Below are positions 3,407 through 26,879 of a stretch of DNA of 53,807 nt, one piece after another. Origin of the DNA: Candidatus Staskawiczbacteria bacterium RIFCSPHIGHO2_02_FULL_43_16. GTDB taxonomy: Bacteria > Patescibacteriota > Minisyncoccia > Minisyncoccales > Staskawiczbacteraceae. The notes beneath the pieces are model-generated. The model did no database searches and was not told where the DNA came from. It saw only the letters and a program-made list of their open reading frames with translations. The stretch is from NCBI GenBank assembly GCA_001821935.1, contig MHOU01000008.1, positions 1 through 53,807 on the forward strand. Direction: 5' to 3'. Made by a program: the position numbers and the translations under genes. Numbering within the stretch: the first letter of the stretch is position 1; each line of letters begins with the position of its first letter.

Positions 3407-4870
3407 ATGCTAACTAAAACCGATTTTATGAATTACCTGGAATGCCCCATGTATTTGTGGCTTTCCAAAAACCGGCCGGAATTGTTGCCGGAAGATGACG
3501 CCGAAAAAGAGCGGATTTTGGCGGCGGGGCGCGAGGTGGACGAATTTGCCAAAAAGTTATTTCCCAAAGCAATAGAAATCAAAGGCTATAACGAAATTGG
3601 TTTTGAACAGACCCAAAAAGCCCTGGCCCAAAATCCCAAGGCGCTGTTTCAGCCCACTGCCGTGGCAGGCGAATTGGCAGCCCGGGCCGATATTTTGGTT
3701 GCCGGCCAAACGCCCGGCACCTTTGACATCAATGAAGTAAAAATGGCCACCAAGGTAAAAAAGGAATATCTGTATGACTTGGGATTCCAAAAAATCTGTT
3801 TTGAAGGCGCGGGCATACAAATCGGCCGATTAAAGTTGGTGCATATTAACGGCAACTATGTGCGCCACGGCGAAATTAACCCCAGCCAGCTGTTTGACAT
3901 TGAAGATATTACGGAAGATGTTAACGAAAAACTGCCCCAGATACAAGATGAAATTCAGCGCGCGCTAAAAATCATTAATCTAAAAGAAGAGCCCAGTGTT
4001 ACTTTGATTAATTCTTGCGCCAACCCCAAATACTGCGATTATATAGAACATTATTCTAAAATATCCGAAGATATTTTTCCGTTAGCCGAAAACATTCAAA
4101 TGCCGCACCTGTTGCACTTGTTGGAGCGTGAAATTTTAGACCACAAAAAAGTGCCCGCCACGCTGTTGGGAAAAATCGGGTTTGAACCGCCGGTGGAATT
4201 TACCAATATAAATACCGAAGGCATAAAACGCGAATTGGCAAAACTGCAATACCCGCTTTACTTTTTTGATTATGAAACTTACAACTGTGCTATTCCGCCG
4301 TTTGACGGCACCACGCCTTATCAGCAAATTCCGTTTCAATATTCACTGCATATCCAAGACGCGCCGGGTGCCCAGCTGCGCCATGCTGATTTTTTAGCCC
4401 AGACCTTTGAAAACCCCATTCCCGGTTTGTTGGAACATTTGCAAAAAGACATGGGCTCCAAAGGCAGCGTGATTGTTTGGTTCGCGCCGTTTGAAACGGG
4501 GCGCAATAAAGAAATGGCTCTGGGAAATCCGGAATTTGCCCAACTGTTGAATTCCATCAATGAACGGATGTTTGACTTGATGGTCATTTTTAAATTTAAA
4601 AATCAGCTGTACACCAAAAGCGAATTTAAAAAACTAGCTTCGTTAAAAGTTATTTTGCCGGTGCTGTGCCCGGAGCTTTCGTACAAAGATTTGGCTATTC
4701 AAGAAGGGGGGACAGCTTCCGCCAGTTGGCCTATTATGACTAACCCGCAAACTCCGCCCAGCGAGCGCGAACGGCTCAAACATGACATGGTTGAATACTG
4801 CAAGCGCGACACCTTGGCCATGGCGGCGATATTGGAGAGGGTGCGAGCAGACCTTGACATAGTTGTGTAA
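3407..4870 (+). CDS. DUF2779-type protein: PD-(D/E)XK (Cas4/RecB-like) nuclease fused to DnaQ/RNase H-like exonuclease
   Basis: CPMYLW, RADIL..INEVK, FFDYET and YCKRDT motifs. Confidence 0.75.
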   Translation: MLTKTDFMNYLECPMYLWLSKNRPELLPEDDAEKERILAAGREVDEFAKKLFPKAIEIKGYNEIGFEQTQKALAQNPKALFQPTAVAGELAARADILVAGQTPGTFDINEVKMATKVKKEYLYDLGFQKICFEGAGIQIGRLKLVHINGNYVRHGEINPSQLFDIEDITEDVNEKLPQIQDEIQRALKIINLKEEPSVTLINSCANPKYCDYIEHYSKISEDIFPLAENIQMPHLLHLLEREILDHKKVPATLLGKIGFEPPVEFTNINTEGIKRELAKLQYPLYFFDYETYNCAIPPFDGTTPYQQIPFQYSLHIQDAPGAQLRHADFLAQTFENPIPGLLEHLQKDMGSKGSVIVWFAPFETGRNKEMALGNPEFAQLLNSINERMFDLMVIFKFKNQLYTKSEFKKLASLKVILPVLCPELSYKDLAIQEGGTASASWPIMTNPQTPPSERERLKHDMVEYCKRDTLAMAAILERVRADLDIVV

Positions 4871-4934: not shown

Positions 4935-6383
4935 GTGAAAAACACCAAAGAAGAAAAGTGGATGCAGACGTATTGCTTCGATCTGACAGATGAGGAGTTC
5001 GGCGCGGAAAATATCCGCCTGGCGACGCACATCAGCGATAGCCTGGTGCCACTTTTTAATGAAGTTCTTCTGCAAGTTCTCAAGGGTGACGAAACCATCA
5101 AGGAGTTAAAGCAGGAGGTGAAACTACGTGGCAGAGCGCTCAAGCAAAAGGCTAAGGAGGCGCAGATGGAAGATTTGTGGGACAGGGAAAACAACGAGAT
5201 TGACGACGAAGAGTGGCTGGAAAGGGGATATGACCAAGAGGTTATCAAAGAGCATCGTGACTACGTTGACGAAATAGCAAAGCTATATTCGGAAAACAAA
5301 GTCACGGCCTTTGATCACAACTACCACTACGCCCAAGAAAATCTAGAGGCAATTGGTTGCACCGCACCGTACGTTAATATCTCTGCTGGACTTCGCCGTG
5401 GCGCCATTAAAAACTGCCACGGGGCAGTGGATTCATGGCGTAAGCATTTGGCGACGGGCGATTACAAGTCCAAGCCGCCCGGTCAGCAAGAGGTTGGCAA
5501 GTTTTATATGCTTCGGTGCGAACCTGGGTGCGCTGTCACCAAAGATCGTAAAAACGTGCGCATCAGTCTTGGAGATCGCAAGTCCAGCCCGGTGTTTGAG
5601 CTGCCTGGGCTTGATAATTCCAAAAACAAACCCCTGCACATGCTTTTGCGTTCTGATGCGAAGGTGAAAAGTTTTACTTTGAGCCGCCGTTCAGCTCGCA
5701 ACCCTGACAAAAAAGAGTCGGACTTGCAAAAGCCCGGCGTGTGGCGCATTTCAATTAATTTCGAATTGCCTTTGCCAGAGAAAAAGCCCGCGACTGAATA
5801 CAATACGGTGGCGTTGGTTATCGGGTCAAACTACCTTGGGGTGGCATTACATGATTCGGAGAGAAACTTTCCTTTGAATCTGCCATTGCCTCACAAGCAC
5901 TGGTTCCCGATTATTGGCGACATTGAGGGTCGGGCAAACGTTCCTTGGCGGAAGAAAGGGAGTAAAAAGTGGCGGCGAAAAATGTTTGGCGTCCAGAAAA
6001 AGCATTCTGGCGGCCGGCAGGCCTGCTACAGATACATGGCTCGCCAGCAAAAACAAGGCGAGTACGAAACCATTGCCGATCACCTGATTGGCTGTGGTGT
6101 TCACTTTGTGGTGAGCAAACCTTCAATCAACCATCCAAAAGGTTTGGCTGATGCTTCTGCTCCTGACCGCGGAGGTGATACCGGTCCCAACCGCATCATC
6201 TCTAGCACCGGTGTTAATTCGCTCGTGTTAAAGCTCAAGCAGAAAGTGAAGGAGTTTGGCGGGTCGGTCACAGAAATGGAAGCGCCACCGTTGCCCGAAC
6301 GATTTCGTTTTTGGGACAGCGGCCCCAAAAAAGTGATCGTTGCCCAGTTGTTGAGAAATCAATATCTGGCGCAAAAAAAATAA
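4935..6383 (+). CDS. TnpB/Cas12-like CRISPR-associated protein, predicted nuclease-dead
   Basis: TnpB-like blocks (QTYCFDL, VKSFTLSR..GVWRISINFE, KKGSKKWRR, NRIISSTG..LKQKVKEFG); RuvC-I reads VALVIG (D>V295), RuvC-II reads FVVSK (E>S394); no Zn finger or RuvC-III; next to cas1 and array. Confidence 0.8.
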   Translation: MKNTKEEKWMQTYCFDLTDEEFGAENIRLATHISDSLVPLFNEVLLQVLKGDETIKELKQEVKLRGRALKQKAKEAQMEDLWDRENNEIDDEEWLERGYDQEVIKEHRDYVDEIAKLYSENKVTAFDHNYHYAQENLEAIGCTAPYVNISAGLRRGAIKNCHGAVDSWRKHLATGDYKSKPPGQQEVGKFYMLRCEPGCAVTKDRKNVRISLGDRKSSPVFELPGLDNSKNKPLHMLLRSDAKVKSFTLSRRSARNPDKKESDLQKPGVWRISINFELPLPEKKPATEYNTVALVIGSNYLGVALHDSERNFPLNLPLPHKHWFPIIGDIEGRANVPWRKKGSKKWRRKMFGVQKKHSGGRQACYRYMARQQKQGEYETIADHLIGCGVHFVVSKPSINHPKGLADASAPDRGGDTGPNRIISSTGVNSLVLKLKQKVKEFGGSVTEMEAPPLPERFRFWDSGPKKVIVAQLLRNQYLAQKK

Positions 6384-6439: not shown

Positions 6440-7171
6440 ATGAATGCCATTTGGTTAACTCATATTTCCAATTACCAAAAAACCGCACATGCTTTTGCTT
6501 CGGCTGAAAAGATTATGAATGTAAAAAACCAGCGGCGTGAATTACTCATGCAAAGGTATGGCACTCTGTTACCCAAAATACGTTTGGCAGATTATCATAA
6601 TAACCAAGAAATTATGTTAGCCGAAGGCCGCACCGCCCAAATATTTTGGAAAAAGTTTTCTTTGCTGTTGCCAAGATGGTGCAGCTTTCGTTCAAGATAC
6701 CCAGGGTCAGATGATCTGGTTAATCGATTACTAGATTTGGGCTACCATCAAATTACTAATGCTATCAGGAAAATCCTTGAAAAGTATGATATTTCGTCAG
6801 CGCTAGGAATTTTGCATGTTGCTCGCAAAACAACCAGCGCTCCACTGGCGTATGATTTGGTAGAAATGTTCCGGGCGGATATTGTGGAAGTGGAAGTCTT
6901 AAGATTTTTGCGCATGAAAAAACAGCCATTGGAAGAGCTGCGCCAAAAAGATATTGCTATTTTTTTATACAGAATTAATCACCGCCTTAATCATAGGTAT
7001 TTTATTAAATCGTTCAAGCAATGCCAAACCTACCGCTATTATATGGAATTACAAATCTTAAAATTTATCAAAGCGGTAAACCATAAAGAAGTTTTTTCTC
7101 CAATTTATTTACCTATTCGTCATGATACAAGATGTACTAAGGGAGTATGTTTTCATGACAAAAAAACTTGA
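6440..7171 (+). CDS. cas1: Short Cas1 (catalytic helical domain only, 243 aa)
   Basis: EGRTAQIFW, DLVNRLLDLGY, GILH, LAYDLVEMFR Cas1 motifs; TG-n-TACACT 6 nt before ATG 6440 supports this start. Confidence 0.85.
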   Translation: MNAIWLTHISNYQKTAHAFASAEKIMNVKNQRRELLMQRYGTLLPKIRLADYHNNQEIMLAEGRTAQIFWKKFSLLLPRWCSFRSRYPGSDDLVNRLLDLGYHQITNAIRKILEKYDISSALGILHVARKTTSAPLAYDLVEMFRADIVEVEVLRFLRMKKQPLEELRQKDIAIFLYRINHRLNHRYFIKSFKQCQTYRYYMELQILKFIKAVNHKEVFSPIYLPIRHDTRCTKGVCFHDKKT

Positions 7172-7197
7172 CAAATAAGGCGATGCCATGCTAAGCT
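7168..7197 (+). promoter_or_regulatory. Promoter for the CRISPR leader/array
   Basis: TTGACA(7168) and extended -10 TG-c-TAAGCT(7192). Confidence 0.55.
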
Positions 7198-7203
7198 CAA
7201 AAT

Positions 7204-7428
7204 AGCACATCATAGGAATATGAGAAAAGTACCCCTGTTCTTGGCAGTTCAGGAAGTATTTTTCTCACCAACTAGTGGTAGTCAGGATGATTACCTTCAA
7301 TCAATTGACAGGATGTATGCGCTGTAGCAGCGCCGCCTGGTCTTGAGCGGACCGGGATGAGGCCTTGTAAAATCTCCTTGCTTTCCTGCAAGGTTGAGGA
7401 AAAAAACACCCCCAGCTCATTTTTTCTT
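7204..7428 (+). ncRNA. Structured CRISPR leader; candidate tracr/scout-like RNA
   Basis: Hairpins at 7221-7267, 7277-7295, 7336-7356 and 7376-7393 between the promoter and repeat 1. Confidence 0.45.
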
Positions 7429-7955
7429 GTAGACGGGCCCTTGCCGACGACGGAGGGGGTTGGTTACTGAAGGGCAACTAGCCACAAATGTCCCATCTTG
7501 TAGACGGGCCCTTGCCGACGACGGAGGGGGTTGGTTACGATAACCGGTTCTGGGAATGAAATTTTTTCCAAGTAGACGGGCCCTTGCCGACGACGGAGGG
7601 GGTTGGTTACGAAAAACAGAACTTTTAGAGCCTCTCTGGTCTTGTAGACGGGCCCTTGCCGACGACGGAGGGGGTTGGTTACGGCAATAGACATGACAAA
7701 AAAAGCGATGATAAGTAGACGGGCCCTTGCCGACGACGGAGGGGGTTGGTTACTGGTCCACGAATGGGCCCTTTCTTAAACTTCGTAGACGGGCCCTTGC
7801 CGACGACGGAGGGGGTTGGTTACAAATAACGGCGACAAGAAAGTATTTTTAGCGGCGTAGACGGGCCCTTGCCGACGAAGACGGGGGTTGGCTACAACAC
7901 GGCCTTATCAATTTTCTTGGGCAAATGTAGACGGGCCCTTGCCGACGACGGAGGG
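7429..7955 (+). CRISPR. CRISPR array: 8 repeats (39 bp, GTAGACGGGCCCTTGCCGACGACGGAGGGGGTTGGTTAC), 7 spacers of 31-33 bp
   Basis: Repeats start at 7429, 7500, 7572, 7644, 7715, 7785, 7857 (4 mismatches) and 7927 (truncated to 29 bp); degenerate right end and downstream terminator indicate + orientation. Confidence 0.98.
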
Positions 7956-7980
7956 TCAAAACAAAAAACAAAAAACTGCC

Positions 7981-8008
7981 AAAGAGCTTCATTGGGGGCT
8001 CTTTTTTC
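7981..8008 (+). terminator. Intrinsic terminator after the array
   Basis: AAAGAGCTTC-ATTG-GGGGCTCTTT followed by a T run. Confidence 0.75.
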
Positions 8009-8103
8009 TTGTAGAACTTTTGTGGTAGAATGGTTTTATGAAAAAAAAGTGGCGATTTTTATAGAGGGGCCACAAAGATATTTCAAAACATATTTCAAAA
8101 CAT

Positions 8104-8132
8104 TTGACAGTCATTTTTTAGAAGCATATAAT
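8104..8132 (+). promoter_or_regulatory. Consensus sigma-70 promoter (leaderless transcript)
   Basis: TTGACA-17 bp-TATAAT, ATG 6 nt downstream. Confidence 0.85.
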
Positions 8133-8138
8133 GAAAAT

Positions 8139-8387
8139 ATGTTAGATGATAAAGATATACAAAAATTAATAGAGGTATTTGCAACAAGAGAGGAAATTGT
8201 TACAAAACCGATGTTTGAAGAATTAAAGTCAAGTTTTAATGACCTGCAAACTTCGGTTGATGCTTATGCCGAAAAAGCGGATACATATTTCCAGGAAATG
8301 GCAATGTTGACCCTTAAGGTAAATAGGCATGAAAAGTGGTTGGAAAAAATGGCAGAAAAATTGGGGATGAAACTTGATTATTACTAA
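8139..8387 (+). CDS. Small coiled-coil hypothetical protein (82 aa)
   Basis: MLDDKDIQKLIEVFATREE...; own promoter and terminator (8404-8431). Confidence 0.7.
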   Translation: MLDDKDIQKLIEVFATREEIVTKPMFEELKSSFNDLQTSVDAYAEKADTYFQEMAMLTLKVNRHEKWLEKMAEKLGMKLDYY

Positions 8388-8515
8388 CATTATCAAGGCT
8401 ACAAAAAATCACCTTAACACGGTGATTTTTTGTGCATTTGACAGCAGGCAGTTTAACTGGTAATATTATTTTTAGTTGTAGATTTCACTGGCTAGTTTTC
8501 ATAAAGGAGTTGGGA

Positions 8516-14974: not shown

Positions 14975-15364
14975 ATGAAAAGGACTTTATTCCTTCTCAA
15001 GCCTGACTTTTTCGAGAAAGAACTTTGGCAAGAGTTTCTGGATGTCTTAAAAACGCACAACTTGGTGGTTGAATGCGATTTCTATGTCACGCTGGCAACC
15101 CTTGATGACGTGAAGGATCTTTATCAATGGGAAACCTTGTGGAACATAGAAATGATGATCCAGTACTGGTGCCAACAGCCTCATCGTGTCTTAGTGGTTA
15201 AGGCGAGGAATGCCGTACAAAAAGCCCATCAGGTCAAAAAGTTTTTCCGCTCTAAGTATTGCAACGAGTGTCATGTGATGTATACGCTTATACATTGTCC
15301 TGACACCTTCAAGGATTTTCAGAGGGAAATTAACTTTTTGATGGGCAAAAAGCTGGTGCAATAG
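14975..15364 (+). CDS. Nucleoside-diphosphate kinase-like protein (divergent)
   Basis: RTLFLLKPD N-terminus and IHCPD phospho-His motif; own TTGACA promoter, SD and hairpin. Confidence 0.65.
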   Translation: MKRTLFLLKPDFFEKELWQEFLDVLKTHNLVVECDFYVTLATLDDVKDLYQWETLWNIEMMIQYWCQQPHRVLVVKARNAVQKAHQVKKFFRSKYCNECHVMYTLIHCPDTFKDFQREINFLMGKKLVQ

Positions 15365-15408
15365 CATATCGGGGAGAACTACTGCACCAGTTCTCCTTAC
15401 TTAAATTT

Positions 15409-16695
15409 ATGAAAGGTATTTTCTATTTAACTTTTAACGGAGTTGTAAATAATACTAACGGCATAGGAACTCAAACAAAACTATTATTAGATGGTTTTGA
15501 TTTTTTTTACGATAAGTTTAAGGAAAGATATGGTGATATTTTTTTGAATATTATTACACCAGATTATCCCGAAAACTACGAAGGTTATTCAAGGGATCAT
15601 GTTAATTTTTCAAAAGAAAAAGTAAATAGATTGGGAGGAAAGATATTTTTTTGTAAAGATTCAAAAACTGTTAAAGATTTTTGGACACCAGAATATTGGG
15701 ATGATTTATCAAAAGAGGCCTGTGAAATTATTAAAAGAGAGATGGTTAAATACGATGATATTCTGGTGATATGTGTTGATATGCCATTTCTTCAAATGCC
15801 GATTTATTTTGAGAATAAATATGGCAAGGTCAATAATATCAAATGGCTTTTATCGCCTTATGGCAGTTCCTATATACATGATAAAAATGCAATAAGTAAT
15901 AAGCGACTGGCTTGGGAGTTTGTGGGAATGTCAGCTTTACGGCTCAATAAAAATGTATATCTTGGCACAGTTTGTGATTTTATGAGTAATCACTGGGTTG
16001 AATACTATGGTGCGCCAAAAGATAAGTTTGCGCCTTATGAATCGAGCTTATTTTTACAAAGTAAGGATTTTGAGAAATTAAATAGTAAAGAAATTGAGGA
16101 CGTCCTTGTGCAATATAAAATACCAATAGATAAGGATATTGTATTTTGTTTTGGCAGAGGAGTATGGATTAAAGGTTTTGATATGGTGCTTAACGCCCTT
16201 CAATTTACTAAAAAAGATTTTCATTTGGTTATGATATCCGTTCCGACACAAAGCGAAATAAATGAGTATGGAGCGTATTTAGAAATGCTGAAAAAGGCTA
16301 AATATTCTTATACGATTATTCCCAAATTCTCAAGAATTTTACCAAAAGCTTTGTGCCAGTGGCGTAAAACAAGAATAGTTGTATGTCCATCAAGAGGAGA
16401 ACCTTTTTCCAATATTCCCCTTGAAACAGCAATTTGGGCGAAAGATAGTGGACCTATTGTTTTGGCTTCGAATATAGATGGATTTCTTGAGCAAATTAAA
16501 AGTGGATTTAATGGTTATTTGTTTAAGATCGAATCTCCTTCTGATTTAGCCAAGAATATCGATTCTGTCCTTTTCCTGAAGGCAAACACTTTAAAGAAAA
16601 TACGAAATAATGCCTATAATAAAGTTGTAAAAGAAAGAAATTTCTTCGCTAACATAAAAGATACGCTAGATTATTTTTGGAATCATAAAAAGTAA
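15409..16695 (+). CDS. Glycosyltransferase family 4
   Basis: FGR..KGFD, PSRGEPFSNIPLE, NGYLF. Confidence 0.85.
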   Translation: MKGIFYLTFNGVVNNTNGIGTQTKLLLDGFDFFYDKFKERYGDIFLNIITPDYPENYEGYSRDHVNFSKEKVNRLGGKIFFCKDSKTVKDFWTPEYWDDLSKEACEIIKREMVKYDDILVICVDMPFLQMPIYFENKYGKVNNIKWLLSPYGSSYIHDKNAISNKRLAWEFVGMSALRLNKNVYLGTVCDFMSNHWVEYYGAPKDKFAPYESSLFLQSKDFEKLNSKEIEDVLVQYKIPIDKDIVFCFGRGVWIKGFDMVLNALQFTKKDFHLVMISVPTQSEINEYGAYLEMLKKAKYSYTIIPKFSRILPKALCQWRKTRIVVCPSRGEPFSNIPLETAIWAKDSGPIVLASNIDGFLEQIKSGFNGYLFKIESPSDLAKNIDSVLFLKANTLKKIRNNAYNKVVKERNFFANIKDTLDYFWNHKK

Positions 16696-16756
16696 GAGTA
16701 ATTTTTGAAAAGTGCTATAATTAAAAAGCTTAAAATTAATAATATAATATAAAAAT

Positions 16757-17206
16757 ATGACATTTAGAACTTTAGCTCGCGTAGTAGTCTACGATATAAA
16801 TTCCCAAAGGATTTTATTAATTCGAAATAAAAACACTGATTTTTGGTATGTTCCCGGTGGTGGATGGGAATACGAAAAAGAAAATATCTTAGAATGTGGA
16901 GTCCGTGAAGTAAAAGAAGAGACAGGCCTTGATGTTGTGACTGATAAGTTTATGTATCTTAGAGAATATCACGAATCACCAGAAAAAATATTTTTTGAAA
17001 CTTTTTGGTTAGCGCACCCTAAAAACACTGTTGACTTAAATAAGGATCACGTGGATATGGATCTTAATGGAAAGGTAGAAGAAGCTAAATGGTTTACCCA
17101 GCAGGAATTGTTGAGATTAACTATTTTTCCTGAATTTTTAAAGAATAAGTTTTGGTCTGATGTAGAAAAAATAGGCAGTGATGAGGATAGATTCATTGGC
17201 TTTTAA
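16757..17206 (+). CDS. NUDIX hydrolase
   Basis: PGGG...REVKEETG Nudix box. Confidence 0.92.
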   Translation: MTFRTLARVVVYDINSQRILLIRNKNTDFWYVPGGGWEYEKENILECGVREVKEETGLDVVTDKFMYLREYHESPEKIFFETFWLAHPKNTVDLNKDHVDMDLNGKVEEAKWFTQQELLRLTIFPEFLKNKFWSDVEKIGSDEDRFIGF

Positions 17207-17211
17207 TTATT

Positions 17212-17736
17212 ATGGATATAACTGATATTGCTGAATTGTCTCTGACAAACAAAGAGGTAACTTCAATTAAAGATGTCATAGCTAGTTTGGTTAAACATAA
17301 AGATGATACAGAATGGTCAGCAAAAACTACCCATTTTGCAATAGATCATATTAAGGAATTTGAAAACGAATATAGTGGTGGTTGTGTAAAAGGATTATTG
17401 GGCAAAGAACACTTCTTAAATATAGTGTTACCCTTTCATGGTCATATGGAAGATTTTACGACGGGTATATTATTATTTCCCGACAACGTTTCAGTAAAAG
17501 AGGCTCTGGAATACTATAAAAAACCTGATCCAAGATATACTAAAAGTTGTTTTGATTATATATTACTTTTAAAAGATCAAATAAAAAACAAGGGTTTCAC
17601 CAGTGAGATAATCATAGAGCTTTTTGATGGTAAATTAAGACATATTGATGGATTGCACAGAATGATTGCATTAAGTCTTCTTTTGGAAGATAGTTATGAG
17701 TACAAGCCAATCCCTGTTTATATTCTTATAAGATAA
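17212..17736 (+). CDS. Hypothetical protein with ParB/Srx-like motif
   Basis: HIDGLHRMIAL near the C-terminus. Confidence 0.55.
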   Translation: MDITDIAELSLTNKEVTSIKDVIASLVKHKDDTEWSAKTTHFAIDHIKEFENEYSGGCVKGLLGKEHFLNIVLPFHGHMEDFTTGILLFPDNVSVKEALEYYKKPDPRYTKSCFDYILLLKDQIKNKGFTSEIIIELFDGKLRHIDGLHRMIALSLLLEDSYEYKPIPVYILIR

Positions 17737-17740
17737 AATT

Positions 17741-18364
17741 ATGAAGAAAGACATTGTTTTCATAGATTGGCATAATACGCTTTCTTGGTCAAAATATTGG
17801 GAAAGCCTATTGGGCAAGAATACTGACTTTACAAAAGTGGTAGATGATTTTTTTGCTTTTGAAAAAGAAATGGAAGCAGAGTGGATGCTGGGAAAGTTGA
17901 AGTCGGAAGATATAGTTAAATTAATCAGCAATAGGTCTGGTTTATCTGAAGATTTGCTTTGGCAAACATTTGTGTCCGACTGTCAAAAGATGCACATTGA
18001 TCCGGAAGCAGTTTCTCTAATAAAAAAACTAAAGGATAAGTATAATGTAGTACTTGTCACTGGTAACATGGATTGTTTTTCTCGTTTTACTGTCCCTGCA
18101 CTAGAATTGGACAAAGTATTTGACCGTATTATAAATTCAGCAGATGTCGGTTATTTAAAAACCGATCATGATGGAAAAACTTTTACTGATTGTTTTAAGC
18201 AATACAATATAAGCGATGTGTCGAAATCATATCTTCTAGATGATTCAGAAAAAACATGTGTTTTATTTAGTAAACTTGGAGGGAAATCTTTGCAAGTTAA
18301 TAGTAAAGAAGACACTATTGGTCATCTGAGTTTTATACTTAAAAACAATTACAATTTAAATTAG
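17741..18364 (+). CDS. HAD-like hydrolase
   Basis: FIDWHNTL motif I variant, VTGN, K, LLDDS. Confidence 0.7.
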   Translation: MKKDIVFIDWHNTLSWSKYWESLLGKNTDFTKVVDDFFAFEKEMEAEWMLGKLKSEDIVKLISNRSGLSEDLLWQTFVSDCQKMHIDPEAVSLIKKLKDKYNVVLVTGNMDCFSRFTVPALELDKVFDRIINSADVGYLKTDHDGKTFTDCFKQYNISDVSKSYLLDDSEKTCVLFSKLGGKSLQVNSKEDTIGHLSFILKNNYNLN

Positions 18365-18371
18365 AAATTTT

Positions 18372-19241
18372 ATGAATAAAGAACAATGTTATAAATTATC
18401 TATCTCGGCATTTTTAGGTGTTTTTTGTATATTTCTTATTACCAATTTTATATTCTTCAAAATTAATTGGCTGTTTTCGATTTTAATTTTCTGTTTTGGG
18501 GTGGTGCTTTTATTAATTGTTAAACTTTATTTAAAAATAGAGAGCAGTGTTGATAGAATCCAGCGCGAGTTGGGACTATCTAAAGTAATCAACGGAGAAA
18601 CAGATAGATGGAATATTGATGAAAAAACGGGAGAGAAAAAATATTATAGTCAATGCAAGCAAGATCAATGGATTATTGAAGAAGTGTTCGATTATAAGAA
18701 AAATGGTTTTTTCTTGGATCTTGGCGGAGCGGATGGAATAGACATTTCTAATACGTATGTACTAGAGAAAAAATATGGATGGAAAGGCATTTGCATAGAA
18801 TGCGAGGACTCATTGTTCGAAAAGTTAAAGTCCAATAGAAACTGTATTTGTGTTCATGTATGCATAGATGATTACTCTAAAAAAACAATTAAGTTTACAA
18901 AGAATAGGGGATTAATAGGAGGAATTATTGATCAAGATACTGACAATAAAGGTTTTATTAATACCAATGAATTTGATAAAAAAGAAACATATGCTTTGGC
19001 GGAAATTCTTGATAAATATAACGCTCCGAAAGTGATAGATTATTTCAGTTTAGACGTTGAGGGAGCAGAGCACCGGATTTTCAGAAATTTTCCCTTTGAT
19101 CGATATAAATTTCTGGCGATGAGCATAGAAAGGCCAAATGAAGATCTGGTAAAAAATCTCAGAGAGAACGGCTATATAAAAGTAGGAGCTAATGAATTTG
19201 ATAAATTATTTATTCACAAAGATTTTAATAAATATAGGTAA
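18372..19241 (+). CDS. FkbM-family methyltransferase with N-terminal TMs
   Basis: YSQ..QD, FLDLGGADG..SNT, SLDVEGAE. Confidence 0.85.
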   Translation: MNKEQCYKLSISAFLGVFCIFLITNFIFFKINWLFSILIFCFGVVLLLIVKLYLKIESSVDRIQRELGLSKVINGETDRWNIDEKTGEKKYYSQCKQDQWIIEEVFDYKKNGFFLDLGGADGIDISNTYVLEKKYGWKGICIECEDSLFEKLKSNRNCICVHVCIDDYSKKTIKFTKNRGLIGGIIDQDTDNKGFINTNEFDKKETYALAEILDKYNAPKVIDYFSLDVEGAEHRIFRNFPFDRYKFLAMSIERPNEDLVKNLRENGYIKVGANEFDKLFIHKDFNKYR

Positions 19242-19345
19242 TGTATTGATGATTTGTAAAAGATAGATATGGGCGATAATTCAGTGGAGCGTAGCAAGAT
19301 TTTTGTTTATGCTATAATAGAACTAAGATTCAACAATATAAAGAT

Positions 19346-21706: not shown

Positions 21707-23461
21707 ATGAACATCGAACCGGAACGGCTTAAGAAATTTTTGGTTGATGCCAATCTCATTAAAGAGAAGGATTTTGATGCCGCCCAAAAAGAGGGCGTTA
21801 AAATCCGCGCCGCGGTAAGCGATATGTTGGTCAAGCGGGGTCTTATTGAACGGGAAAAGCTCACTAAATTTGAAGCCTATTTGTTAGGAGTGCCTTTTGT
21901 TAACATTGAAAAAGAAATTATTCCCCATGAAGTCCTGCAAATTATCCCCGAACAGATCGCCAGGGCTCACAGTGTTGTCGCCTTTCGCAAGCGGGAAAAT
22001 AACCTTGAGGTGGCCATGCTTGACCCGGAAGATTTAGCAACCATTGATTTTATCAAAAAAACCGATCCGTTTTTAAAAATCTTGCCGCGCCTGACTACGC
22101 CCGAAGGCATTAAAAATGCTTTGCGTCAATACCAGGAAACGCTGGATGTTGAATTCGGTGGCATTATGCCGGCTGGCGCGTCTGGCGCCATTAACCATAA
22201 GCCCGGAGAAGAAGTTCTGGTTGATAAAAGAGACTTGATTAAAGCTTCCCAGGAACTGCCCATTGTCAAAATTGTGGACACCTTGATGAAGCACGCCATT
22301 TTGCAAAACGCTTCGGATGTGCACATTGAACCGATGGAAAAAGAAGTGGTGGCGCGTTTCCGTATTGATGGTATTTTGCATGACATGATGGCTCTGCCGG
22401 TTTCCAGCGCCCTGGGCATTGTGGCGCGCATCAAGGTGCTGAGCAATTTAAAATTGGATGAACACCGCCTGCCCCAAGACGGGCGGTTTAAAATTGAAAC
22501 GGATGATTATAAATATTCGGTGAGGGTTTCCGTGTTACCGGTGTTTAACGGTGAAAAAATCGTGATGCGGCTTTTGGCCGAAGGCACCAAAGCTCAAACT
22601 TTGGAGGGCTTGGGGTTTTCGGGTAAAGCCTTGGAAATCATCAAGCAAAATTTGGTCAGGCCCACCGGCATGATTTTAATTACCGGGCCCACGGGCAGCG
22701 GGAAAACCACCACGCTCTATTCCATGATGGATATTTTAAACACTCCCAAGGTGAATATTTCCACGGTGGAAGATCCTATTGAATACCGCATGCCGCGAAT
22801 CAACCAAACCCAAACTAACGCGGCCATCGGTTTGACCTTTGCGGCCGGTTTGCGCGCTTTGGTTCGCCAAGACCCCAATATCATCATGGTGGGTGAAATC
22901 AGAGACAGTGAAACGGCTAGCCTCGCCATTAATGCCGCCCTTACCGGCCACTTGGTGCTTTCCACCATCCACACCACCGAAGCCGCCGGCGCCATCCCGC
23001 GGTTAATTGACATGCAGGTGGAACCGTTTTTGATTGCTTCAACCGTCAATGTGATTATCGCCCAGCGTTTGGTGCGCAAGTTTTCCGCCAACAAAGAAAA
23101 GTATCGGTTAAAAAAGGCCGAAGTTGATGAGTTGGCGGCGCACTGCAATATGGCCAGGGTGTTGGAAATACTGCGCGCTGAAAAAATACTGAAAGCTAAG
23201 GGGACGTTGTTGGATCTGGATTTTTACCGGCCGGATATTTCCCAGGGGTCCGGTACGGGATACAAGGGCCGGATGGGCATTTACGAAGTGTTGCCGGTCA
23301 CCCAGGCTATCAAAGAACTGATTGTTAAAAAAGCTTCCACCAAGGATATTACCGATGTGGCCGTTGCCGGTGGCATGCGCACCATGTTTGAAGACGGGCT
23401 AATCAAAGCCGCACAAGGCTTAACAAGCATTGAAGAAGTGTTGAGAGTGATTATAGAGTAA
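21707..23461 (+). CDS. pilB: Type IV pilus assembly ATPase PilB/GspE
   Basis: ASDVHIEP, RLPQDGR, GPTGSGKTTT, RQDPNIIMVGEIRD. Confidence 0.95.
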   Translation: MNIEPERLKKFLVDANLIKEKDFDAAQKEGVKIRAAVSDMLVKRGLIEREKLTKFEAYLLGVPFVNIEKEIIPHEVLQIIPEQIARAHSVVAFRKRENNLEVAMLDPEDLATIDFIKKTDPFLKILPRLTTPEGIKNALRQYQETLDVEFGGIMPAGASGAINHKPGEEVLVDKRDLIKASQELPIVKIVDTLMKHAILQNASDVHIEPMEKEVVARFRIDGILHDMMALPVSSALGIVARIKVLSNLKLDEHRLPQDGRFKIETDDYKYSVRVSVLPVFNGEKIVMRLLAEGTKAQTLEGLGFSGKALEIIKQNLVRPTGMILITGPTGSGKTTTLYSMMDILNTPKVNISTVEDPIEYRMPRINQTQTNAAIGLTFAAGLRALVRQDPNIIMVGEIRDSETASLAINAALTGHLVLSTIHTTEAAGAIPRLIDMQVEPFLIASTVNVIIAQRLVRKFSANKEKYRLKKAEVDELAAHCNMARVLEILRAEKILKAKGTLLDLDFYRPDISQGSGTGYKGRMGIYEVLPVTQAIKELIVKKASTKDITDVAVAGGMRTMFEDGLIKAAQGLTSIEEVLRVIIE

Positions 23462-23468
23462 ACTTAAA

Positions 23469-23864
23469 ATGATTCCTAAATATATTGATCACATAGTTCT
23501 CATTGTGAAAGATGTCAATAAAACATCAGAATTTTACATTAAGTTTCTGGGTAAGCCAGAATTAAAAAATGACGAAGAAGTTGCTTTTAAAATAGGTGAA
23601 ACGAAATTATTTTTTGTTTTGCCGCTAAAAGAATATAAACTAAATGATAAAGATAGTTATTCGCTAAATCACTTGTCGTTTGGTGTAACAAGCACAGAAG
23701 AATTAAGGGAATTTGAACAAGTTCTCAATAATGCAAAAATACCAAACAAAGGAATAAGGATAGACAAATATGGAAAAAAAGAATACGTTTCTTTTGATGA
23801 CCCTGACGGGTATAGGATAGAATTTTATAATCGGCCAATAGAAAAAGATAATGCAACACAATAA
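23469..23864 (+). CDS. VOC/glyoxalase family protein
   Basis: IDHIVLIV, NHLSF, DPDGYRIE. Confidence 0.88.
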   Translation: MIPKYIDHIVLIVKDVNKTSEFYIKFLGKPELKNDEEVAFKIGETKLFFVLPLKEYKLNDKDSYSLNHLSFGVTSTEELREFEQVLNNAKIPNKGIRIDKYGKKEYVSFDDPDGYRIEFYNRPIEKDNATQ

Positions 23865-24684
23865 TACGATTATAAACTTCGAAAATGTTCCGGTGCGGCG
23901 GGTTTGGGATGAAAAAAAAGAGACTTGGTATTTTTCAGTTGTTGATGTGGTGGGGATTTTAACTAACAGCAAAGCCCCTCGCCGGTATTGGTCAGATTTA
24001 AAAATTAAGTTAAAGCAGGAAGGTGCTCAGTTGTACGAAAAAATCGTACAACTGAAATTCTTAGCCCAAGATGGGAAAAAGTATGTTTCCGATGCGGCAG
24101 ATACCGAAACGATGTTTAGAATCATCCAAAGCATTCCTTCACCAAAAGCGGAACCATTAAAGCAATGGTTGGCGAAAGTGGGGTATGAAAGGTTGCAAGA
24201 AACCGTTAACCCAGAAATGGCGGTCAATCGTGCTAGAGGTCATTGGTTGCAAGTGGGCAGGTCAACAAAGTGGATAGAGCAGCGTATGCGTGGCCAAGAA
24301 ATCAGGAATAAACTTACTGATTATTGGGCTGGCCATGAGGTGACCAAAGAAGTTGAGTATGCCATGTTAACGGATATTATTCACAAAGAGTGGAGCGGGC
24401 TGACTACCAAACAACATAAAAAAGCTAAAAGTTTGCGGGGGCATAATTTGCGCGACAACATGACCGAAGCTGAATTAATTTTTACCGCCTTGGCGGAACT
24501 TTCAACCCGGCAGATAGCCGAAAGCGAAAAAGCCAAAGGCTATAGAGAAAATAAAGTTTCAGCACGTAAGGGTGGGAAAATTTCCGGTGATGCCCGTAAA
24601 AAACTTGAACTTCAAACTGGTAAAAAAGTGGTAAGCAAAGAAAACTTTTTACCGCCAAGGAAAGAAATTAAAACATTAACGTAA
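23851..24684 (+). CDS. BRO-N domain protein (phage antirepressor-like)
   Basis: VRRVWDE..WYFSVVDVV, RIIQSIPSPKAEP, NLRDNM. Confidence 0.88.
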   Translation: MQHNNTIINFENVPVRRVWDEKKETWYFSVVDVVGILTNSKAPRRYWSDLKIKLKQEGAQLYEKIVQLKFLAQDGKKYVSDAADTETMFRIIQSIPSPKAEPLKQWLAKVGYERLQETVNPEMAVNRARGHWLQVGRSTKWIEQRMRGQEIRNKLTDYWAGHEVTKEVEYAMLTDIIHKEWSGLTTKQHKKAKSLRGHNLRDNMTEAELIFTALAELSTRQIAESEKAKGYRENKVSARKGGKISGDARKKLELQTGKKVVSKENFLPPRKEIKTLT

Positions 24685-25904
24685 TGCCCAATTTTTCTTA
24701 CAAAGCCAAATCGTTTGAGGGGGCTGATTCTTCCGGGAAGATGCAGGCGGTTGATGAGCGCGAGCTGGCTTTGGCTCTAAAAGCCCAGGGGCTGATTTTG
24801 ATTGACGCGGCCAAGGAAGGCAAAAAGAGGGGGTTGAACATGGAAATCAATGTGCCGTTTTTGGGCGTTTCCAGCACGGAAAAAATCATGATGACGCGCA
24901 ATTTGGGCGTCATGTTTTCCACGGGGCTTAGCATGGTGAAAATTTTTGATATTTTGTCAATTCAATCAAAAAGCCGGCAATTAAAAGATGCCCTGGCGAA
25001 TATTAAAGACAGCGTCAGTAAAGGAGAAAATCTTTCCGACGCGCTGGCGCGCTACCCGAAAATTTTCAATGAATTGTTTGTCAACATGATAAAAGTGGGG
25101 GAGGAGTCCGGCACCTTGGACGAAATTTTCCAAATTTTGGCTCTGCAGCTTGGCAAAGAGCACGAGTTAAAAAGCAAAATCAAAAACGCCATGACCTATC
25201 CGGCCATCATTGTGCTGGTGATGTTGTGCGTGGGCGTGGTGATCATTACCATTGTACTGCCCAGCCTGGATACGTTTTTTACTTCGCTCAACGTGCCGAT
25301 TCCTTTTTACACCCGGGCGGTATTATGGGGGGGGAGGTTTTTGTCAAAAAACTGGTGGCTGCTTTTTGCCGGACCGGCAGCGCTGGTGGGCGCTGTTATG
25401 CTGATCATTAGGACGCCCAAGGGCAAATGGGCTTTGGATACGTTATTGTTGCGTTTGCCGGTGGTTTCCCAGATTGTCAAAAAAGGCAATTCGGCATTTT
25501 TGATCCGGTCGCTCTCTTCATTAATCGCCTCCGGGGTTCCGCTGATACGCGCATTGGAAATTTCTTCCAAAACGGTGGGCAACCAGTATTTTTCAAAGGC
25601 CTTAGTGGAAGCGGCGGTGAAAATAAAAAAAGGGGAAAAATTATCCGGGGCCCTGCGCGAACATGCTAACCTGTTTTCGTTCGGAGTAATTGAAATGATG
25701 GAGGTGGGGGAGGAAACCGGAAAAACCGCCGTCATTTTAAAAAAACTGGCCGAATTTTATGAACAGGAAGCCGGCGCCGCGGTGGAAAAGATGGCCATTT
25801 TAATAGAACCGATGCTGATTATTTTCTTGGGAGTGTCTGTCGGATTTTTCGCTTTTTCCATTATCCAGCCCATGTATTCTTCACTAAAATTTATCGGAAG
25901 TTAA
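24684..25904 (+). CDS. pilC: Type IV pilus platform protein PilC/GspF
   Basis: VGEESGTLD, AMTYP, VGEETG, IEP. Confidence 0.93.
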   Translation: MPNFSYKAKSFEGADSSGKMQAVDERELALALKAQGLILIDAAKEGKKRGLNMEINVPFLGVSSTEKIMMTRNLGVMFSTGLSMVKIFDILSIQSKSRQLKDALANIKDSVSKGENLSDALARYPKIFNELFVNMIKVGEESGTLDEIFQILALQLGKEHELKSKIKNAMTYPAIIVLVMLCVGVVIITIVLPSLDTFFTSLNVPIPFYTRAVLWGGRFLSKNWWLLFAGPAALVGAVMLIIRTPKGKWALDTLLLRLPVVSQIVKKGNSAFLIRSLSSLIASGVPLIRALEISSKTVGNQYFSKALVEAAVKIKKGEKLSGALREHANLFSFGVIEMMEVGEETGKTAVILKKLAEFYEQEAGAAVEKMAILIEPMLIIFLGVSVGFFAFSIIQPMYSSLKFIGS

Positions 25905-25928
25905 ATTTATGAAACAAAGGGGCTTTAC

Positions 25929-26030
25929 CCAAGCACCACTTTCGCTATGTCATTATTATCTAGTGCTTACCATTATTTTAAGAATATTATGATTTGCAAG
26001 AAACCCATCAATCGCGAAAGTGGTGCTGGG
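25929..26030. mobile_element. 102-bp inverted-repeat element (copy 1) at a prepilin GFT site
   Basis: CCAAGCACCACTTTCGC...GCGAAAGTGGTGCTGGG flanked by TTTAC direct repeats. Confidence 0.7.
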
Positions 26031-26879
26031 TTTACTTTGATTGAAATTTTGGTGGTAATTTTTATTCTCGCCGTTTTGGTGCTGGTTTCCATTCCCGCCC
26101 TCGACCTTTTTTTAAAAAATTCCCACGTGGCCAACGGTATGCAGGAATTTTACACCGCCCTCACCCTGGCCCAAAGTAAAACGATTGCCTCGCAAGACGA
26201 AAGCCAATATGGCGTATATGTGGATACCGGCGTTTCGCCCCACCGCTATGTCATATTCAAAGGAGCCACCTATGCCACGCGCCTTGAGGCGGCCGATCAA
26301 TCATTTTGGCTGCCAAAAACGGTGGAATTTTCGGAAATCCTTTTGGGCAGTGGCAATGAAGTGGTGTTTAGCAAGTTAACCGGATATGCTAATCCGGCGG
26401 GCAGCGTTTCTGTAAGATTAAAAGCCGATGCCAGCAAGACAAAAACCGTTTATATTTCCAGCGCCGGCATTTTGGATTTTACGGCTCCTGCGGTAGTGGC
26501 CGACACCCGGGTGAAAGATTCACGCCATGTGCACGTTGATTATAGCCGGGTGATTGATACTGCTACCGAAAGCATCACCATGCTGTTTGACGGCACGGTT
26601 TCCCAGGTTATTCCCATCGCCGTTAATATGGCGGGGGGTCAAATATACTGGACAGGCACGGTGGCGGCCGGCGGATCTGATCAAACCGTAACTGTACGCA
26701 CCCACCGTTTAAACGATGCCGATACCCAGTTTAGCATTCATCGCGACGCAAGCATGAACAATAAAAGCTTGCGCGTTACCATTTCAGGTGACAGTTCGGG
26801 CAACCTGGCGCTGTATTCGGCCGACGGCCTGACCACCAGCTTTTCGTCGGTGTATGTTTCTGATCTTGAGTGGCAATAG
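25947..26879 (+). CDS. Type IV pilin-like (FimT/GspH-like) protein
   Basis: GFTLIEILVV N-methylation motif; start uncertain (25947 or 25989). Confidence 0.85.
   Translation: MSLLSSAYHYFKNIMICKKPINRESGAGFTLIEILVVIFILAVLVLVSIPALDLFLKNSHVANGMQEFYTALTLAQSKTIASQDESQYGVYVDTGVSPHRYVIFKGATYATRLEAADQSFWLPKTVEFSEILLGSGNEVVFSKLTGYANPAGSVSVRLKADASKTKTVYISSAGILDFTAPAVVADTRVKDSRHVHVDYSRVIDTATESITMLFDGTVSQVIPIAVNMAGGQIYWTGTVAAGGSDQTVTVRTHRLNDADTQFSIHRDASMNNKSLRVTISGDSSGNLALYSADGLTTSFSSVYVSDLEWQ

Follow-up and report, generated by a model that had tools for sequence, protein, structure and literature searches.

Contig MHOU01000008.1 of Candidatus Staskawiczbacteria bacterium RIFCSPHIGHO2_02_FULL_43_16 (GenBank assembly GCA_001821935.1, here G000) was found to carry a CRISPR array with adjoining cas genes; the host is an ultra-small groundwater bacterium. 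The stretch that was analyzed (the window, 53,807 nucleotides, or nt) is the entire contig C8 of this assembly, which comprises 740 kb in 12 contigs and is 95% complete. The module consists, in this order, of a Cas4-like DUF2779 gene, a Cas14e-like effector gene, a Cas2-less mini-Cas1 gene, a promoter, a conserved noncoding stretch (putative leader, about 230 nt), and the array itself (Table 1). An earlier note on this DNA drew attention to a strand bias of the spacers, by which the CRISPR RNAs (crRNAs) would be complementary to mRNA. The main facts that it missed are the origin of most spacers in genes of the host itself or of its congeners and an effector without nuclease residues. This self-loaded array of an apparently nuclease-dead Cas14e-like system is a more important finding than the bias.

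Table 1. Features of the CRISPR-Cas module in the window and matches of its seven spacers
Feature	Position	Strand	Description
DUF2779 protein (P0002)	3407..4870	+	Cas4-like PD-(D/E)XK N-terminal part; Pfam DUF2779, E value 6e-37
Effector P0001, 482 amino acids (aa)	4935..6383	+	Cas14e-like, Cas12f/TnpB fold; PADLOC Cas12_x1 (CAS-V-F), E value 1e-42
Mini-Cas1, 243 aa	6440..7171	+	Start taken as the ATG at 6440; open reading frame (ORF) listed from 6311
Promoter-like site	7168..7197	+	TTGACA, 18 nt, TAAGCT; read from sequence
Conserved noncoding stretch	7198..7428	+	Promoter to repeat 1, ~230 nt; putative leader or scaffold RNA
CRISPR array	7429..7955	+	Eight repeats of 39 nt, the last cut short; seven unique spacers, each 31-33 nt long
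Spacer S1	7468..7499	+	Antisense to nt 83-114 of own enolase gene, 32/32, C10:75583-75614 minus; gene plus
Spacer S2	7539..7571	+	Antisense to own fusA (elongation factor G, EF-G), mid-gene, 32/33, C10:15303-15334 minus; gene plus
Spacer S3	7611..7643	+	Unmapped
Spacer S4	7683..7714	+	Antisense to Na/Ca-exchanger family gene of congeners, 28/32 in G126 (L012), 91% in G431
Spacer S5	7754..7784	+	Antisense to own rpsS (S19), codons 3-13, 31/31, C10:21429-21459 minus; gene plus
Spacer S6	7824..7856	+	Sense to own rplD (L4), 31/33, C10:19942-19974 plus; gene plus
Spacer S7	7896..7926	+	Antisense to glyA (serine hydroxymethyltransferase, SHMT), 29/31 in G274 (L010), 24/31 in own C12 copy
Intrinsic terminator after array	7981..8004	+	Terminator scan

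The effector, P0001, matches the PADLOC model Cas12_x1 over its full length, and no sequence match to it was found in Pfam, NCBIfam, or the PDB. All 51 aligned members of its family match Cas12_x1 as well, and 19 of the 51 match HTH_OrfB_IS605. With 29% amino acid identity over residues 70 to 482 (E value, 2e-42), P0001 resembles P0075 (QBM02640.1), which has the source name "CRISPR-associated protein Cas14e.3"; other proteins in the Cas14e.3 cluster bear Candidatus Staskawiczbacteria names. An AlphaFold (AF2) model of P0001 built from the 51-row alignment has a predicted local distance difference test (pLDDT) score of 88.9. The best PDB matches to this model in Foldseek are AsCas12f (8j12_A; E value, 7e-11; template modeling score, or TM, 0.55/0.61), Cas12m2 in second place, CnCas12f, a dCas12f (9n9c; TMt, 0.61), and TnpB, and solved Cas12g structures are also among the fold matches.

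When profile-aligned to TnpB-like chains, P0001 has V295 at the column of the RuvC-I Asp and S394 at that of the RuvC-II Glu. Across the family, two of 51 members have Asp at the former column, and none (0/51) has Glu at the latter. The C-terminal zinc finger is absent, with no CxxC in the last 110 residues of any of the 51 members, and the proteins stop short of both this finger and RuvC-III, so that an intact RuvC D-E-D triad was not found. An acidic residue beside the RuvC-II column, kept in 40 of the 51 members, is lost in the clade of P0001. The family does have a nearly invariant motif (D406, N419, Q423, T425, and G426), and P0001 is therefore under selection. Judged from these residues, the effector probably binds its target but does not cut it. 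The family is rare: it accounts for 4 of 7,999 candidates scored from a collection of 5.8 billion proteins and for 65 cluster representatives among 1.84 billion proteins, and it occurs in 3 of 401 genomes sampled across the order, in 1 of 401 sampled across the phylum (G000 itself), and in 5 of 79 genomes of the host's family, all of one genus. Metagenome contigs searched with the effector profile gave 99 pattern matches and viral contigs searched with a family subalignment gave 21, none of them related, and tblastn of plasmids with an effector family member gave no match.

The array lies where the earlier note had placed it, with eight repeats and seven spacers. The repeat copies start at positions 7429, 7500, 7572, 7644, 7715, 7785, 7857, and 7927, at a spacing of 70 to 72 nt; repeats 1 to 6 are identical, repeat 7 (7857) has 3 mismatches, and repeat 8 (7927) ends after 29 nt. 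Near-identical regular repeats, unique spacers, and adjoining cas genes thus mark it as a CRISPR array. The 3' end of the Cas1 gene, which the Cas12-like effector gene precedes, is 258 nt away from the first repeat. Apart from a short repeat on contig C10, no other array with CRISPR-like spacing was found in G000.

Plus-strand transcription of the array, as previously proposed, is well supported by these sequence features because the promoter, the terminator, the decayed repeats at the far (3') end, the strand-specific G-U pairs of the repeat hairpin, and a layout shared with five related arrays all agree; the cas genes are also on the plus strand, the layout of related loci likewise follows the strand of their cas genes, and a minus-strand reading is not supported. 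Seven repeat variants share a hairpin that has 7 consensus pairs, U-G wobbles included, on the array strand versus 4 pairs on the opposite strand. A promoter scan detected the equivalent upstream site at three of the five arrays scanned (G334, G420 C1, and G420 C6); in G000 and G300 the site fell below the threshold, its -10 box being too weak. A terminator scan found a site 3' of the array on the array strand at four of five arrays (G000, G300 C5, G334, and G420 C1) and none after the G420 C6 array. The noncoding stretch upstream of repeat 1 is 74% identical to that of G300 over 244 nt, its conserved core is also present in G334, and conservation extends to its 3' end, where leader and repeat join. 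An Rfam scan of positions 6800 to 8400 gave no match, and anti-repeat pairing in the upstream noncoding region was no better than for shuffled repeats at all three loci compared.

Three smaller observations concern the array and its repeats. Directly past the terminator, positions 8003 to 8016 repeat the leader-repeat junction at 7420 to 7433 (T-run, CTT, and first repeat bases), which may have been left behind by an older array end or by a duplication. Position 7784 is joined to 7856 on opposite strands in one contig each of the metagenome runs X1, X4, and X5; the hairpin-forming repeat most likely caused this join in the assembly graph. The short repeat on C10 (~2000 to 2500) is a 20-mer that recurs at a spacing of 45 to 100 nt and differs from the CRISPR repeat.

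The spacers were compared by BLAST with the genome of their host; searches also covered 79 genomes of the family, phages, and plasmids. Four spacers (S1, S2, S5, and S6) have full-length matches in the host genome, all on contig C10; three of these sites fall in a 6.2-kb stretch of the fusA-S10 operon, and the fourth lies in the enolase gene. The window itself holds no protospacer, in agreement with the earlier note, since the own-genome protospacers are on other contigs. S7 matches the glyA gene of a congener better than that of its host. The gene matched by S4 has no homologue in G000 by tblastn, and a copy of S4 with four mismatches is present on a deeper contig of run X5. S3 has no match in its own genome, in the 79 family genomes, or in phage or plasmid records. 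The whole array gave only chance-level matches to phage records (E value, 6) and a single chance match to plasmid records, which lies in a decayed repeat, and no metagenome contig with the exact repeat was found. The mapped spacers, in this array and in the related arrays described below, copy protein-coding genes from the chromosomes of this genus.

The four spacers that had been recognized as antisense from their letters, namely, those against enolase (S1), EF-G (S2), S19 (S5), and SHMT (S7), are all confirmed as antisense to real genes. The remaining three had been proposed to be antisense as well, on the strength of short open frames; this is correct for S4, wrong for S6, which is sense to rplD (its frame within L4 reads NNGDKKVFLA), and without a counterpart for S3. 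The open-frame criterion carries no weight, because either strand of every one of the seven spacers can be read as at least one open frame.

Repeat-spacer junction pieces of the array were recovered from four public metagenome runs belonging to four studies, at a depth like that of the flanking contig. Contigs that carry the perfect targets were recovered from these four runs too, at depths similar to those of the junction pieces, which speaks for a stable coexistence of array and targets; in run X5 the enolase contig has a depth of 11.1 versus 11.7 for the flank of the array. The recurrence of the junction pieces in four runs rules out that the self matches are assembly artifacts or belong to a rare variant. 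A location of the targets on a mobile element was likewise ruled out by their sites in the fusA-S10 operon and other core genes.

Related loci were found in four sister genomes (G300, G334, G420, and G435), which have in common the effector, the short Cas1, a promoter with TTGACA, a conserved noncoding stretch of about 230 nt with a conserved junction at its end, repeats ending in GGYTAC, and the terminator. In G435, the contig stops within the first repeat. G300 has an effector contig and two array variants at contig ends (L008 on C5 and L020 on C18) with identical leader, first repeat, and terminator and with different single spacers. Because both single-spacer versions occur in one assembly, the sampled G300 population holds at least two array variants. 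In G420, the effector match on C1 (L048, 7904 to 10184) is broken by one TGA and one TAA, and a DDE transposase gene stands between the effector and the DUF2779 gene. Far from this interrupted locus, C6 of G420 carries an orphan promoter, noncoding region, and four-spacer array (L051, 1505 to 1800), in which two repeat variants alternate whose hairpin arms differ by matching changes.

The arrays of three sister genomes contribute 8 spacers, for a total of 15 spacers from one genus. The G300 C18 spacer is antisense to the dnaB gene of its own genome (31/31), G420 C6 Sp1 is antisense to a metallo-β-lactamase (MBL)-fold gene of its own genome (32/32), and G420 C6 Sp3 is antisense to the start of a release-factor gene of its own genome (27/32). 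Own-genome matches thus account for four of the seven spacers in the G000 array and for three of the eight in the sister arrays. The G300 C5 and G334 spacers and G420 C6 Sp2 and Sp4 have no convincing match in the 79 family genomes, and the G420 C1 spacer has none in the five genomes searched. All nine mapped targets are within ORFs, and none is in a promoter. The spacers differ wholly between the sister genomes, with none in common, so the arrays turn over among close relatives.

When all mapped spacers are pooled, eight of nine are antisense to the gene they match and one is sense (binomial P value, 0.0195 one sided and 0.039 two sided). The orientation bias noted for the G000 array is therefore kept in the larger set of 15 spacers, with modest support. 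In G000, the coding strand tracks the GC skew on nearly every contig, with about 85 to 90% of the coding sequence co-oriented with the skew; contig C10, for instance, has 70.5 kb of coding sequence on the plus strand versus 6.2 kb on the minus strand. Because the coding strand follows the GC skew, "antisense to the gene" equals "lagging-strand sequence" for almost all targets. The dnaB target of G300 lies in a minus-strand gene block within a contig of plus skew, and its spacer is still antisense, a single data point that hints weakly at transcription rather than replication.

No consensus for a protospacer-adjacent motif (PAM) was seen on either flank of the nine protospacers, all of which are self or kin sites, and the 5' T-rich PAM typical of type V-F was not found at them. 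The guide-target mismatches are unevenly placed. The five imperfect pairs have 14 mismatches (S2 at guide position 1; S4 at 6, 7, 9, and 13; S6 at 1 and 7; S7 at 6 and 30; and G420 Sp3 at 1, 3, 4, 5, and 8), and 13 of the 14 fall in the repeat-proximal guide positions 1 to 13. The seed of Cas12-type effectors is expected in the repeat-proximal guide positions. The clustering is therefore suggestive of escape from binding.

We tentatively favor, with a probability of about 45%, a type V-F-like system whose effector is nuclease dead, in which self spacers are tolerated and the antisense excess arises by survivorship. According to this proposal, the lineage would acquire spacers without an evident PAM, and self spacers would be survivable, and so accumulate, because the effector complex binds without cutting. 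In work with dCas12a, only guides of sense sequence are reported to block an elongating polymerase well. By the same rule, the R-loop of a Cas12-type effector would halt RNA polymerase chiefly with guides of sense sequence, for which the PAM-proximal side is the first that the polymerase encounters. Such guides, if aimed at essential genes, would then be purged, and antisense guides would persist. The only sense spacer of the set, S6 against rplD, is mismatched to its target at guide positions 1 and 7, within the expected seed.

Several points weigh against survivorship. The polarity rule is borrowed from dCas12a, and if the effector does not bind the sites, as may be the case where no PAM is visible, selection could not sort the orientations. 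The near-invariant D406/N419/Q423/T425/G426 motif may leave room for a rearranged active site. The mismatch clustering mixes own-genome with cross-species pairs (two are cross-species), and mismatches within a pair are not independent. Transcription and replication direction are confounded for nearly all targets. Six of the 15 spacers are unmapped, and the single spacers of G300 C5, G334, and G420 C1 are without a match in their own genomes. The sample is small, and all arrays come from one genus; the G000 array alone has five of six mapped spacers antisense (one-sided P value, 0.11), and without the four spacers that raised the hypothesis, four of five are antisense (one-sided P value, 0.19). 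With own-genome matches only, the count is six of seven (P value, 0.0625). These subsets speak for the alternative that there is no real bias and that the eight of nine are a chance run of random orientations, and the loss of the open-frame evidence agrees with this. We regard a chance run as quite unlikely, given the pooled P value and a direction that had been predicted before the additional arrays were looked at.

A different origin of the bias would lie in acquisition, for which the locus appears to be equipped. The mini-Cas1 is without the N-terminal domain (Pfam Cas_Cas1 matches positions 131 to 264 only, and TIGR00287 matches from position 91), and it retains the Glu, His, and Asp motif residues in an alignment to solved Cas1 proteins; the same short form occurs in G334, G420, and G435. 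No Cas2 was found in the G000 genome. From its sequence, this Cas1 looks competent for adaptation. In type V-C and V-D systems, Cas1 is a Cas2-less "mini-integrase" in loci of two to three genes with spacers of 17 to 19 nt. The mini-Cas1 of G000 resembles it in its short form without the N-terminal domain and in the lack of Cas2 in the genome and differs from it in the length of the spacers, here 31 to 33 nt.

If mini-Cas1 took fragments in an orientation defined by their source, the bias would be set at acquisition. Proposed sources are single-stranded DNA from replication forks or from R-loops at busy genes and cDNA made by a reverse transcriptase. The concentration of three of the four own-genome protospacers in the fusA-S10 operon, with the fourth in the enolase gene, would agree with such a source, there is no PAM to fix the orientation, and in a genome whose coding sequence is so largely co-oriented with the GC skew, a replication-strand rule would mimic an antisense rule. 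The six RVT_1 genes in the genome, one of them beside glyA, would also be in keeping with it, but none is in or adjoining the cas module. The dnaB, release-factor, and MBL-fold targets are not obviously highly expressed, S6 breaks the rule, and the antisense dnaB spacer of G300 argues weakly against the replication version. Orientation set at acquisition is, on balance, rather unlikely.

The RVT_1 genes themselves, which encode proteins of about 340 to 370 aa, are located at C12:82410-83009, C2:103589-104185, C12:112936-113535, C2:831-1427, C11:70883-71479, and C6:5870-6478 and may belong to diversity-generating retroelements. One of them is just upstream of glyA, the gene resembled by spacer S7.

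The polarity of the guides could also reflect RNA targeting, in which the crRNAs would pair with mRNAs and the nuclease-dead protein would damp the translation or stability of the host's own transcripts. Eight of the nine mapped guides are complementary to mRNA, as in the RNA-targeting type V systems Cas12g and Cas12a2, and the lack of a PAM is as expected for RNA targets. S5 covers codons 3 to 13 of rpsS, the site matched by G420 Sp3 extends to where the release-factor gene starts, and, as described above, Cas12g structures are among the fold matches. In contrast to Cas12g and Cas12a2, P0001 is without RuvC catalytic residues, and the known RNA-targeting type V enzymes require an active RuvC. 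Moreover, most sites are at arbitrary places within ORFs, sister species do not have the spacers in common, and the best fold matches are the DNA-binding Cas12f and TnpB. RNA targeting is thus improbable.

Binding to DNA might instead serve a programmed self-regulation, a hard-wired natural CRISPR interference (CRISPRi) that throttles genes of translation and glycolysis. Its targets would be the essential growth genes fusA, rplD, rpsS, eno, dnaB, and the release-factor gene, and the array is stable in four runs. CRISPR-linked dCas12f proteins have, in the available text of PMC13472631, been proposed as repressors. Against hard-wired regulation, no target is in a promoter, the sister genomes have wholly different spacers, two spacers match congeners more closely than their own host, and the observed orientation is the one expected to block least. 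We consider it very improbable.

The earlier note had offered RNA targeting, strand-specific transcription blocking, and transcription-linked acquisition as explanations. RNA targeting and oriented acquisition remain compatible with the larger set of spacers, and strand-specific blocking fits less well; the three mechanisms are indistinguishable here. Since the roadblock of Cas12-type effectors is strong with a sense guide, the antisense excess is more in keeping with avoidance of blocking, or with RNA pairing, than with blocking itself. A bolder conjecture, which we also hold to be improbable, is that the CRISPR system both writes and reads the transcriptome of its own cell, with mini-Cas1 inserting fragments in a transcript-defined orientation and the dead effector, loaded with guides antisense to essential mRNAs or coding strands of the host, acting as an adaptive, heritable antisense or CRISPRi throttle of growth genes.

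Among known systems, Cas14e is like the effector described here in matching the Cas12_x1 model, and its cluster representative P0010 is changed in the same way at both catalytic columns, RuvC-I and RuvC-II; P0001 is set apart by its low identity and by the loss, in its clade, of the acidic residue next to the RuvC-II column. Cas12m2 is like P0001 in fold. Cas12m is larger than P0001, keeps RuvC and the zinc finger, and targets plasmids and phages, not the host chromosome. As cited in the available text of PMC10691335 and PMC13472631, the DNase-free type V effectors Cas12m and Cas12c give protection through binding and a block of transcription. The former source, as far as it was available, also describes inactivated branches within Cas12f and a loss of RuvC-III together with array minimization (PMC10691335).

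A dCas12f that works with sigma-E has been characterized, and a distinct dCas12f cluster is found near CRISPR arrays (PMC13472631, available text, as for the comparisons that follow). The CRISPR-associated dCas12f proteins share with P0001 the Cas12f fold, a mutated RuvC, a C-terminal truncation, and an array with a conserved upstream noncoding region. Their guides sometimes aim at the promoters of efflux cassettes, whereas the targets here are in housekeeping ORFs. In contrast to the main dCas12f clade, which works with a sigma-E factor, the locus in G000 has no Pfam match to a sigma factor among the 32 ORFs of 227 to 26879. A further difference is that Cas1 is present here and the arrays turn over.

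The closest parallel in self-targeting is a locus of Roizmanbacteria, in the candidate phyla radiation (CPR), with a fragmented CasY (Cas12d), in which 12 of 22 spacers are self targeting (PMC6509639, available text here and below). CPR bacteria are there described as being without RecBCD, and regulation is proposed as possible. The CasY locus resembles that of G000 in its CPR host, type V effector, Cas1 only, many self spacers, disabled effector, and long persistence in the population. In contrast to P0001, an intact ORF of another family that is without catalytic residues, the CasY effector is a Cas12d that is broken up though catalytically intact, and its self targets keep a 5' TA/TG PAM, whereas no PAM was seen here. 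No strand bias is mentioned for the CasY locus in that text. Supplements aside, neither an antisense polarity of self-derived guides nor a Cas1-bearing dead Cas12f with guides against housekeeping genes is reported in the available text of PMC6509639, PMC10691335, or PMC13472631.

Nuclease-dead relatives of Cas12f have only recently been shown to be natural RNA-guided transcription factors, and the CRISPR-linked ones have so far only been predicted. Here, such a protein is accompanied by an adaptation gene and by changing arrays, in which at least half of the mapped guides come from essential genes of the host itself. If the polarity is true, it may expose a strand rule of this effector class, as a natural screen for tolerated guides; alternatively, it may point to oriented spacer uptake or to RNA pairing by a Cas12f-type protein. 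The system is a second, independent case, after the fragmented CasY, of CPR bacteria that live with heavily self-directed arrays, and it bears on adaptation in organisms without RecBCD-type self-avoidance. With 482 residues, P0001 might also serve tool building as a compact binder.

Outside the effector, mini-Cas1, and array, the module includes the DUF2779 gene, which is directly upstream of the effector gene in three loci of the genus (G000, G300, and G420), with differing outer flanks. The N-terminal part of its product has weak PADLOC matches to Cas4 (E value, 2e-5). The DUF2779 homologues adjoining the effector are proteins of 519 aa (L004) and 521 aa (L048, 35% identity).

Farther along the window, positions 21707 to 26879 hold a cluster resembling those for type IV pili and competence (T2SSE ATPase, T2SSF platform, and prepilin-type protein), in which a gene of the glyoxalase family (23469 to 23864) and a gene with a BRO-N domain (23851 to 24684) lie between the ATPase and platform genes. 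DNA uptake via this pilus cluster could be one route by which DNA of kin reaches the adaptation machinery. Between the array and the pilus cluster, positions 15000 to 19300 form an island of low GC content (0.30 to 0.35, versus about 0.43 elsewhere) with genes for a glycosyltransferase, NUDIX and HAD proteins, and an FkbM methyltransferase.

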